A stretch of DNA of 62,855 nt, the filler included, from Candidatus Woesearchaeota archaeon (GTDB lineage: Archaea; Nanobdellota; Nanobdellia; Woesearchaeales; WJIZ01): NCBI GenBank assembly GCA_018221205.1. It is 8 parts of 8 records of this genome, joined end to end, with 100 filler letters (N's around TTAATTAATTAA, not from the genome) between each part and the next. Parts side by side here need not be neighbours in the genome. Positions count along the whole stretch, not along the records: positions 41,080 to 62,855 come from JAAOYF010000072.1; 7 more parts are not named here. One strand, written 5' to 3'. This document shows, one piece after another, positions 26,968-56,120 of the stretch. A program made the translations under genes and the position numbers. The notes beneath the pieces are model-generated. The model made no database searches. It was not told the DNA's origin and saw only the letters and a list, made by a program, of their open reading frames with translations. Positions within the stretch are counted from its first letter, which is position 1, and each line of letters opens with the position of its first letter.

Positions 26968-27148
26968 GTTGAATCACCTTAATCGCATGGAGAATGTGCA
27001 ACTTATAAAGATTATGTTTAATGCGAGCGTAGCGAGCACAGGGGTTTANNNNNNNNNNNNNNNNNNNNNNNNNNNNNNNNNNNNNNNNNNNNTTAATTAA
27101 TTAANNNNNNNNNNNNNNNNNNNNNNNNNNNNNNNNNNNNNNNNNNNN

Positions 27149-27514
<366 letters not shown>

Positions 27515-46719: not shown

Positions 46720-47319
46720 TTACTTTGAAAAAAAAGTTTCTCGCCCGGGTGATCCGTTAAAAGCGATTTCAAATATTTCTCTGGCTCGATGTTCAATCCC
46801 ATCACTATTACTACACAAAAGAATTCCGTCCAGGGGAATTACTCTTTTAGCTTCTTCTGCTACTCTGGCAGCATAGTCATATGGGATAACACATCCATCA
46901 AGGGCATTAACAAGTATATTTGCACTGCTTGTCCCCTGATCAAGTAGAAAGGATAGGGCATCTCTGCCATCGTATCTGATTTTTGACATATCTCTTGATT
47001 GCTCTGCCCAAGCCCTCATTAATTCTTCATTATGAAATGGATCAACAGCAATCACTTCTACTACACCTAGGTCAAGATATTCGTCACTACCGTCTATGGG
47101 AATAGCACCTAATAGTTGTTGAGCAGCACGAAATCCAAGCTTTCCACTAGCTAGATCAATTAATGGATGTCCTGAAAGGTATTGATTTAAATCCTCTTGC
47201 CTATAAACCAGTTCTCTAAGCACATACTCCACAACTCCATTAAACATTACAACAGGCTCTCTTTTTACTGATCTCTGTATTAATAATTGATCCTGATCGG
47301 ATATTGTTTTTTTAGCCAT
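46720..47319 (-). CDS. Hypothetical protein, possibly a degenerate SAM-MTase fold
   Basis: LIDLASG, AVDP, DALSFL, RVIP.DG patterns. Confidence 0.55.
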   Translation of the reverse strand: MAKKTISDQDQLLIQRSVKREPVVMFNGVVEYVLRELVYRQEDLNQYLSGHPLIDLASGKLGFRAAQQLLGAIPIDGSDEYLDLGVVEVIAVDPFHNEELMRAWAEQSRDMSKIRYDGRDALSFLLDQGTSSANILVNALDGCVIPYDYAARVAEEAKRVIPLDGILLCSNSDGIEHRAREIFEIAFNGSPGRETFFSK

Positions 47320-47450
47320 TTTAAATCAAGTGTAAGTAGAAGAATGGTTTTAAATTTATAAACAATGGGATTTCAAAACATATAACCCATATTATCTTGT
47401 CGAGAAATAGAGAAGAATATCTGAGATTCGAAATGCTCAAATGAAAAGAA

Positions 47451-47611
47451 TGCGGGAAGCAGGACTCGAACCTGCGAAGGCACTAAGCCAATAGATGGCT
47501 CACGGAGCACTTCATCGACCTTGTGGGTCTCGTTACTCAAACGACTTGAGTTTGGATGTTTAGCGCCTCTGCGGTAAACTCTATCCCGTTTGACCGCTCC
47601 GGCATTCCCGC
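47451..47611 (-). tRNA. tRNA-Leu(CAA) with two introns (47552-47580 at 30/31; 47497-47544 at 37/38)
   Basis: Acceptor GCGGGAA/TTCCCGC, Leu-type variable arm; removing both BHB introns restores ATAGA-CTCAAGA-TCTAT and an 84-nt tRNA. Confidence 0.85.
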
Positions 47612-47646
47612 ATTATGCTAAACAAATAAGAATTCTTTTTTAAGGA

Positions 47647-48045
47647 TTACGAAAGATGCGCAAGCTTTGATTCGATATCTGCTAATCCGTCCTCGATCCT
47701 ATCTAACTCAGACCTAGGTTTTGGAGGGAGAGTGGCAGGCTTTTTCTCTATCTGCACTATCTTCTTCACTGGCTTTGGCTTTGGCTCAGAAGGTAAATTG
47801 ATATGAGGCATTGTCTTCTTGATCTTGTTTATCGTGGCAGAGATATGCTTCAGATTCTTCCTTAATTTTGATTTCTCATGGATCTTCTGCTTCCGTAATT
47901 CCTTCAATTCCTGGAAGACTCTCATCGACTCAAGTGTCTTCCTTCTTGCTTCTAATAAAGAAACCCTCGTGACATGTGGATCATTCATCGCGACAAAGAA
48001 TTCCTCTTTCGGAGCTGCTTTTTTCTTTGCCTTTTTTGCCATCAT
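47647..48045 (-). CDS. Hypothetical coiled-coil protein
   Basis: FFV strand followed by a long helix; C-terminal ELDRIEDGLADIESKL. Confidence 0.75.
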   Translation of the reverse strand: MMAKKAKKKAAPKEEFFVAMNDPHVTRVSLLEARRKTLESMRVFQELKELRKQKIHEKSKLRKNLKHISATINKIKKTMPHINLPSEPKPKPVKKIVQIEKKPATLPPKPRSELDRIEDGLADIESKLAHLS

Positions 48046-48271: not shown

Positions 48272-49024
48272 TTACTGGAATAATGAGCTTTCAAGCTCAT
48301 CGAGCTTTCTATCGATCTCTGTAAGATCCTCATGTAATTTTGAGAAGGTCTCTTCTTCATCGCTCATGTCCTGGGCAATCTCTGCAATCTCCAAGTCTGA
48401 GTCTTTCAAGGATTTCTTAATGGTATTCAATTCCCGCAACGCTTTCTTGTACTTGCCCACTTCCACAAAGACTGGTTTGTGGCCTCCCGAAAATAGATGG
48501 GGATGCTCAGGTATGGGTGCAGACTCTTCGAACAGTCTCTTGGTATCGAACGACTCCTTTTCTATCGGAGGCAGCTCGTGATGCTCTGCGTGCTCGGGCA
48601 TAGGGAATTTAGGCTCGGGAAACATTGAAGGTGCTTCTTCCATGGGGGGCATAGGGAAATTCTCCTTTGGAGGCTGCATCGGAGGCATTGCCTTAGGTTT
48701 CATCGACGGCATCCTCGGCTCCATAGGTGGAGGCATAGGGAAATCTTCATGTTTATTAAGAGGTGGAAAATCTGTGTGATGATCCATGGATGGGTGTGGT
48801 GGGAAATCCTTAGTCTTCGCATCAGGTGGAGGAAAATCTAACGTAGGCTCTGGTGGAAGATCAGGAATACTGGGACCTGGAGGACTAGGAGGAGTCATAT
48901 CTTGAGAAGGTGCACCTTCCATAGGTGGGGGCGGGGGGATATCTAAGCTATCTTCTGTTTTTGCTTGTTTTTTCCTCATGAATTTCATGAAACCAATCAT
49001 TCCCCTTTTTTGTATGAAATACAT
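48272..49024 (-). CDS. Proline-rich protein with C-terminal coiled coil
   Basis: FPPP/FPMPP repeats, then PVFVEV and a helical hairpin. Confidence 0.75.
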   Translation of the reverse strand: MYFIQKRGMIGFMKFMRKKQAKTEDSLDIPPPPPMEGAPSQDMTPPSPPGPSIPDLPPEPTLDFPPPDAKTKDFPPHPSMDHHTDFPPLNKHEDFPMPPPMEPRMPSMKPKAMPPMQPPKENFPMPPMEEAPSMFPEPKFPMPEHAEHHELPPIEKESFDTKRLFEESAPIPEHPHLFSGGHKPVFVEVGKYKKALRELNTIKKSLKDSDLEIAEIAQDMSDEEETFSKLHEDLTEIDRKLDELESSLFQ

Positions 49025-55789: not shown

Positions 55790-56120
55790 GTGCAGGATAG
55801 GTACTTAGCTCACGGTGAGTGCGTTGACTCCGGTCTTCGACTCTCATTGAGGAAAGTCCGCCCACCAACTTTGGCTGCCCTTTGGGATCCAGTAATGGAT
55901 GGCAACCACGCAGAAACGAGACCACCTTTGTTTAGGATGATGTGTGAGAGGGCCTGGGCAACTAGGCTTAGATAACCCACAGACGTTTTCAAAGGAATGG
56001 GTGAAACGGTGAGTCCCAGTCGGTGCAAGTCAGTATGACGCTTAGTTAAATGCTAGGGAGGCCATCGAAGCAATGCTTAGTAATGGGCCTTACAGAAGGC
56101 GGCTTATTCCTATCCTGCAC
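55790..56120 (+). ncRNA. rnpB: RNase P RNA (archaeal)
   Basis: P1 GTGCAGGATAGG/CCTATCCTGCAC; GAGGAAAGTCC; GCAGAAA; GGTGAAACGG; GGTGCAAG; ACAGAAGGCGGCTTA; upstream TTTATAA and downstream T-run. Confidence 0.93.

Follow-up and report, generated by a model that had tools for sequence, protein, structure and literature searches.

What could a tRNA gene gain from introns that set its whole anticodon apart on an exon of only seven nucleotides? This question is raised by a tRNA-Leu(CAA) gene of 161 nt with two short introns, which lies on the minus strand at positions 47451-47611 of the window, the whole stretch of 62,855 nt that was analysed. An earlier note on this DNA described the gene and its splice motifs. 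The main feature was missed there: intron 2 carries a guide-like sequence that is complementary to the anticodon exon, together with a predicted kink-turn, and, judged from its sequence, self-guided 2'-O-methylation of the wobble base C34 (Cm34) is the likely function of this intron.

Structure, detection and orthologs of the tRNA-Leu(CAA) gene

The 29-nt intron at position 30/31, the exon ACTCAAG and the 48-nt intron at 37/38 proposed in the earlier note are all present on the minus strand, in the following arrangement:

47581-47611, minus strand: exon 1, 31 nt, tRNA positions 1-30
47552-47580, minus strand: intron 1, 29 nt, position 30/31, relaxed HBh' motif
47554-47557, minus strand: ATCC of intron 1, pairs with exon positions 25-28
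47545-47551, minus strand: exon 2, ACTCAAG, 7 nt, positions 31-37, with the whole CAA anticodon
47548, minus strand: wobble C34, within exon 2
47497-47544, minus strand: intron 2, 48 nt, canonical position 37/38
47451-47496, minus strand: exon 3, 46 nt, positions 38-73, includes the variable and T arms; no encoded CCA
47636-47643, minus strand: TATA-like TTAAAAAA, 25-32 nt upstream of G1, found by eye; predicted, likely promoter
47439-47450, minus strand: pyrimidine-rich trailer, found by eye; possible terminator

When joined, the exons give the expected normal tRNA of 84 nt, which folds into a type II cloverleaf with a long variable arm and a valid anticodon loop; intronless orthologs also measure 84 nt. 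The gene is almost certainly real. A scan for sigma-70 promoters and terminators, which is ill-suited to archaea, found nothing on its strand. One sequencing run, probably of DNA and available as contigs, did not cover the full gene and showed no joints, which bears neither way on its expression. The flanking open reading frames at window positions 46720-47319, 47647-48045 and 48272-49024 (minus) had no NCBIfam match, and the one of 250 aa is very proline-rich. Elsewhere in the window we found an archaeal RNase P RNA (55819-56118, plus) and a partial SSU rRNA (27147-27473, minus).

Both introns have a 4-bp central helix with 3-nt bulges at every junction. In intron 1, helix H is GGAT/ATCC and helix h' has 5 bp; since the outer helix comprises only 1 bp by inspection, the motif is a relaxed HBh'. 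Intron 2 has CTCA/TGAG as its helix H, flanked by the bulges AG^T and CC^A, as the note had described. Because A flanks both ends of intron 1, this gene taken alone would also permit a 31/32 position. This reading was ruled out by orthologous copies of intron 1 that start with T or C and end with a base other than A, which fix the site at 30/31.

The suspicion that standard scanners would miscall the gene was well founded: ARAGORN misses it by default and labels it Lys(ttt) when introns are allowed, and no Rfam family covers it at gathering score. We found no second Leu(CAA) gene in the 1.28-Mb, 94.8% complete assembly; an intact one was among the conditions that the note had named as refuting its reading. 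The 15- and 18-mers across the spliced junction had no match in the genome, and 20-mers from the 5' and 3' ends match this locus only. Two Leu(caa) calls by ARAGORN were rejected: we read the one at C26:18670-18782 as a Thr(GGT) gene whose intron is canonical, and a low-scoring one on contig C6 was not recovered by a scan for acceptor and T arm. TTG codons are common (5,411 in long open frames), although they could also be read by wobble, through the tRNA of a Leu(TAA) gene present in the genome.

Other tRNA genes of this genome are also interrupted. We observed introns in about 21 of the 30 tRNA genes found, several of them outside 37/38. Genes for Met, Cys and Asp were not recognised by the scan; these may be hidden by introns or unassembled. 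Further apparent multi-intron genes miscalled by ARAGORN lie at C74:13881-13984 (minus), C60:151-324 (plus) and C63:38515-38654 (minus), the first of which reads as Asn(GTT) with a 7-nt anticodon exon between two introns. At C12:16541-16725 and C44:17564-17783, partial copies of a tRNA 5' end lie just upstream of Val(GAC) and Ser(TGA) genes with hairpin inserts. According to the available text of a recent preprint, many Nanobdellota genomes still have missing tRNAs after a search with tRNAscan-SE (bioRxiv 10.64898/2026.05.13.725050).

In order to survey orthologs, genome contigs were scanned with a 3'-exon pattern blind to intron content, which gave at least 120 loci (about 430 estimated). Together with 30 loci from 60 relatives, and after bacterial and truncated entries were dropped, 123 Leu(CAA)-type entries were parsed; two (L010 and L027) were corrected by hand, and two more (L082 and L125), which come from genomes flagged as unpublished, were counted in the tallies, with no claim resting on either alone. 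Among the matches listed, records with the same architecture are titled mostly Woesearchaeota, Nanoarchaeota or Nanoarchaeia; some carry the title 'uncultured Methanosarcinales' and are presumably mislabelled. The 99 fully parsed entries outside Micrarchaeota, among the matches listed, comprise 37 with both introns, 33 with only that at 37/38, 4 with only that at 30/31 and 25 with neither, so the earlier view that such layouts occur mainly in Thermoproteales and some ARMAN lineages was too narrow. An extra insert in the D arm (D-loop) was found in 19 of the matches listed, ten of which also have both other introns. With orthologs in Woesearchaeota-type genomes ranging from zero to three introns, this layout is shared across the lineage and is of a kind already known.

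Introns at 30/31 are 25-35 nt long among the matches listed. All four H pairs are kept in 39 of the 41 distinct ones listed, with exon and intron co-varying in several combinations, and the BHB-like motif that the note saw in intron 1 is thus not due to chance. In one further Leu(CAA) copy (L080), a piece of the anticodon stem and exon is missing, which looks like a deletion of intron 1 together with flanking exon bases; this suggests an artefact or pseudogene, and the copy was left unparsed.

A guide-like module in intron 2 and in other tRNA introns

Read from its 5' end, intron 2 consists of 4 nt, TTTGAGT, 1 nt, ACGA, a 4-bp hairpin, G, ATGAAGT, an anti-guide, TGAG and CC. Its elements are:

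47535-47541, minus strand: guide-like 7-mer TTTGAGT, a complement of exon 2, with C34 paired to the fifth base before D'
47530-47533, minus strand: D'-like box ACGA (mostly ATGA or CTGA in orthologs)
47517-47529, minus strand: hairpin, with the 4-bp stem I of the predicted kink-turn
47509-47516, minus strand: 3-nt bulge GAT and C'-like box ATGAAGT (47509-47515)
47505-47509, minus strand: anti-guide, can pair with the guide in the splice fold of the intron
47499-47502, minus strand: TGAG, 3' strand of the central BHB helix, pairs with positions 32-35

Box C has the consensus RUGAUGA and box D the consensus CUGA; the target base of a box C/D guide pairs with the fifth base before D or D' (the D+5 rule), and the usual archaeal guide duplex spans roughly 9-12 nt. 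By this consensus we take the elements of intron 2 to be a D' box followed by stem I, a bulge of 3 nt and a C' box, which make up one kink-turn, and by the D+5 rule the guided base is presumably C34. Against the consensus, the C'-like box of this gene has two mismatches and the D' box one. The stem, the 3-nt bulge and the tandem GA of an internal D'/C' kink-turn are all found, as a sequence pattern only. The guide duplex has 7 bp (six Watson-Crick and one G-U), and mostly 6-7 bp in orthologs. Terminal C and D boxes or a second kink-turn are absent from intron 2, where only about 4 nt precede the guide. Because of the missing second kink-turn and the short duplex, intron 2 is guide-like without being a full member of the box C/D family. 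The 3' TGAG varies in orthologs in the manner of an H-helix partner (TGAG, TAAG, TGGG, GGAG).

The module with a guide in C34 register was found in 44 of 72 distinct 37/38 introns outside Micrarchaeota among the matches listed, and in 19 of 14,400 dinucleotide shuffles; since the relatives are not independent, the shuffle counts and Fisher values are overstated, and such counts show a pattern rather than a probability. None of 16 Micrarchaeota-type introns among the matches listed has the module. The first module score itself used stem pairing, which biased its stem statistics, and these were replaced by an anchored test in which introns were selected by guide and ATGA only, with pairing unused. 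Among the matches listed, 47 of the 72 introns pass this selection (22 lack the exact guide word and 3 lack ATGA). In this listed set, GA occurs at the place of D' in 42 of 47 introns. With a 3-nt bulge, stem pairs 1-3 form in 43, 42 and 44 of these 47 listed introns, and with bulges of 1, 2, 4 or 5 nt in at most 28 of them. Of 5000 partner shuffles, none reached the observed level for pairs 2 and 3 and 27 did so for pair 1. Up to five pair types occur per stem position in the anchored set of listed matches.

A scored set of 57 modules, again from the matches listed, links the two boxes to each other: where D' starts with C, the partner in the C' box is G in 17 of 17, and in the others in 14 of 40. 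The base at -5 opposite C34 is G in 54 of these 57. Six of six guide bases match the anticodon exon in 40 of 53 listed introns; among the same matches, 46 of 53 have a guide that begins 3-5 nt beyond G37. The D-loop (C20a) was tried as a target on account of an 8-bp run in this gene; the bases adjacent to D' are unpaired there, and none of the listed introns reaches 6/6 against the D-loop. GTGATGA in the 5' strand was rejected as a C box since its GA positions vary across orthologs. A nested mini-intron of 11 nt, with the TGAG of the guide as H partner, has no outer helix by inspection and would leave the conserved boxes unexplained.

Modules of D', hairpin and C' also occur in three other tRNA introns of this genome, with guides aimed at C34 in Trp(CCA) (C20:1189-1304, minus; 7 bp), at U39 in Phe(GAA) (C9:24517-24644, minus; 8 bp) and at C39 in Leu(TAG) (C26:8483-8606, plus; 5 bp). 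Among 21 Trp loci, 16 introns were parsed, of which 13 aim at C34, two at neither site and one has no module. The 30 Phe loci gave 14 parsed genes, ten with introns: six aim at U39 (6-10 bp), one does so with 5 bp and three have no module. For Leu(TAG), 31 loci were scanned and nine genes parsed; of the eight with introns, two aim at C39 (7-8 bp), the copy of this genome has 5 bp and five have no module. Guides for position 39 extend their pairing to the last two bases of the intron and track changes in these, so that their target is the unspliced precursor. In two Phe loci (L170 and L181), the guide lies so near the 5' splice site that the U39 duplex partly uses exon bases 36-37; alternatively, part of that duplex could come from the junction of a circular intron.

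Proposed methylation, splicing and competing explanations

Genes for fibrillarin and Nop5 are adjacent on contig C5 of this genome, which also encodes RtcB and an L7Ae-like protein of 100 aa. The latter scored 121 bits, below the TIGR03677 cut-off of 134.6, and its gene lies upstream of open reading frames read by eye as S28e and ndk. No SpoU/TrmL-family match was found in this genome, and no FtsJ match over the cut-off. A full-length fibrillarin match was found in 80 of 103 genomes searched; of the parsed fibrillarin-positive genomes, 71 of 79 have the 37/38 intron, versus 1 of 23 negatives, a link that is confounded by lineage, genome size and completeness. Eight of these 23 negatives are named Pacearchaeota, most are small, and 22 lack the 37/38 intron. 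Among the 71 introns in fibrillarin-positive genomes, 47 have module and guide and nine have the module but a degenerate guide; the other 15 fall short of the module rule, some of them as near misses. The sole intron-bearing genome without a fibrillarin match (L110) has ATAA in place of the D' GA; another (L107) also has ATAA at D', yet encodes fibrillarin.

The earlier note held that introns of this kind need an EndA of relaxed specificity. This view is weakened, as the genome has no (alpha-beta)2 or epsilon2 enzyme: a single PF01974 match was found, an open reading frame of 184 aa of alpha type, and no beta subunit or fused three-unit EndA was found with PF01974, which a very divergent beta could escape. 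With its catalytic residues, acidic L10 loop and C-terminal strand (read by eye), this protein appears alpha4-like. EndA matches were found in 59 of 61 genomes searched, with exactly one match in 58 of the 59. The specificity loop L3 is a Lys-rich insert of the N. equitans/ARMAN type before the catalytic His. The segment from Tyr to His before the catalytic His measures 9 aa in 30 of 30 examined, equal to that of M. jannaschii and 6 shorter than that of N. equitans, and carries Lys in 29 of 30; the insert of the N. equitans type appears to be absent from the EndA of this genome. As reported in the available text of Kaneta 2018 (PMC5829648), DPANN alpha4 enzymes with an L3 loop are linked to more disrupted tRNA genes, and thus the pairing of an alpha4 EndA with relaxed introns is already in print.

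In the unconstrained minimum-energy fold of the precursor, exon 2 is paired with the guide. This fold lies 7-8 kcal/mol below the BHB fold, in energies that leave out kink-turn and protein terms, and the two are mutually exclusive. The H helix of intron 2 can be forced on the full precursor at a cost of 7.3 kcal/mol, which becomes 8.3 kcal/mol once intron 1 is removed; forcing the helix of intron 1 costs 2.9 kcal/mol and does not disturb the guide hairpin. In the computed folds, the canonical BHB gains its full outer helix only after removal of intron 1. The expectation that intron 1 must go first holds to that extent, for the completion of this outer helix; it does not hold beyond that, since an EndA able to cut a relaxed motif could cut intron 2 first. 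As modelled, the folding supports an order with methylation first and intron 2 last.

That intron 2 has a guide function, in cis or in trans, appears quite probable. Our preferred reading is that it forms a minimal box C'/D' guide with one kink-turn, which would direct 2'-O-methylation of C34 in cis before splicing; we give it a probability of about 0.68. The short duplex, the single kink-turn, the mismatches in both boxes, the degenerate guides and missing modules in some fibrillarin-positive genomes and the trans action of the Haloferax Trp intron speak against it. The anatomy of the sequence, its conservation, the register of the pairing and the presence of the genes are observed and the folds are computed; protein binding, methylation, cis action and order are inferred, in the following pathway. 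The precursor would fold into a short hairpin between its 7-nt exon and the guide. L7Ae would bind the kink-turn and recruit Nop5-fibrillarin, and C34 would be methylated by the D+5 rule, most likely in cis. The alpha4-type EndA encoded by a single gene would then cut the 30/31 intron, whose motif can coexist with the guide hairpin, and RtcB would ligate the ends. Finally, refolding would pair positions 32-35 with TGAG to give the full canonical BHB, and intron 2 would be removed.

The same elements could instead act as a switch of folding or timing, in which the kink-turn binds L7Ae for the sake of intron stability or splice gating and the complement of the anticodon only sequesters the micro-exon, with no methyl group added. 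Such a role would account for the mutually exclusive folds, for the anti-guide, which pairs at 4-5 of its 5 bases in 43 of 57 introns among the matches listed, for the short duplex and missing second kink-turn, and for the nine introns that keep the kink-turn with a degenerate guide. We consider it unlikely, because sequestration needs no fixed spacing of the D'-5 base on C34 (Leu, Trp) or 39 (Phe, Leu-TAG), and 34 and 39 are the two positions reported, in the available text, to be methylated through the known Trp intron (PMC7994747). If the module does guide Cm34, it could also do so in trans, as an excised (circular) intron or as a second precursor acting on other molecules. Trans action has been reported for the Trp intron, including that of Haloferax, in the accessible portions of the sources (PMC11408192, PMC4090602), and in one ortholog (L085) the guide sits 13 nt from G37. 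We regard this as quite unlikely here, as a 7-bp duplex would be weak in trans, the usual start of the guide 3-5 nt after G37 in the listed matches suits a cis hairpin, and the use of the last two intron bases by position-39 guides points to an unspliced target.

A very improbable explanation sees in the module the decaying remnant of an ancestral guide intron, or of the transposition of introns between tRNA genes, kept only through the need for a BHB fold. Intron or module has been lost in many orthologs, and intron transposition has been reported in Thermoproteales, as far as the available text shows (PMC4090602); but every guide matches its own host tRNA and not a donor, the hairpin sequence is free to vary while its pairs and the 3-nt bulge are kept, and the guide is still conserved where the anti-guide is poor.

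A broader extension of the cis guide reading is tentative and probably too wide as a whole. It holds that tRNA introns of Woesearchaeales form a family of half-guides acting in cis, each with one kink-turn and a tethered guide of 6-10 nt aimed at C34 (Leu-CAA, Trp) or 39 (Phe, Leu-TAG). As the folds for methylation and splicing exclude each other, methylation would be a checkpoint before splicing. The 30/31 intron would free the 7-nt exon by keeping the anticodon stem open, and a plain alpha4 EndA, without known specificity insert, would cut all of these introns.

Significance and comparison with known systems

Our search of the openly searchable literature turned up no description of a guide within the introns of Leu(CAA), Phe or Leu(TAG), and none from Woesearchaeales. 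If our reading is true, intron-encoded guides are no longer limited to tRNA-Trp and the Met intron proposed for N. equitans, but also serve Leu(CAA), Phe and Leu(TAG); this extension would span a large uncultured order and give some tRNA introns a concrete function. It would also provide a natural single-kink-turn substrate for probing the half box C/D RNP and cis action. A half-mer C/D RNA bound to its target has been crystallised, according to the available text of PMC6239191. A title cited in PMC7994747 states that efficient methylation needs both C/D and C'/D' RNPs, which speaks against a guide with one kink-turn. The gene would further make it possible to test directly whether relaxed motifs are cut by an alpha4 EndA that has none of the known inserts. 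The finding corrects tRNA annotation in these genomes, and the two-intron layout alone amounts to such an annotation fix.

The closest known system is the intron of euryarchaeal pre-tRNA-Trp (Haloferax volcanii; Pyrococcus sR50), which lies at 37/38 like intron 2 and carries a guide aimed at C34 of its own tRNA (PMC7994747, PMC11408192, PMC4090602). As far as the accessible text of these papers describes it, the Trp-intron RNA has two guides, for C34 and U39, and acts in trans, whereas intron 2 of Leu(CAA) has 48 nt, one kink-turn and a single 7-bp guide adjoining its target, and related introns aim at either 34 or 39. A second similarity is found within DPANN: the intron RNA (66 nt) of the elongator tRNA-Met of Nanoarchaeum equitans has a box D, a degenerate box C and a hairpin, and has been proposed as a C/D sRNA (PMC3491384). 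That RNA belongs to another tRNA and was seen by RNA-seq, according to the available text, which names no target for it. The same tRNA and the same base, C34 of tRNA-Leu(CAA), are the predicted target of a free-standing Pyrococcus sRNA in the parts available of PMC7994747 and PMC7668247; it is encoded apart from the tRNA gene, whereas the putative guide described here lies inside intron 2. With respect to its two-intron layout, the gene is a member of the known multi-intron BHB tRNA genes. The accessible text of PMC3239211 and PMC5829648 likewise describes tRNA genes with several BHB introns, relaxed HBh' motifs and missed calls by scanners in Thermoproteales, ARMAN-2 and M. kandleri; these use an (alpha-beta)2 or epsilon2 EndA, in contrast to the single alpha-type enzyme of this genome.
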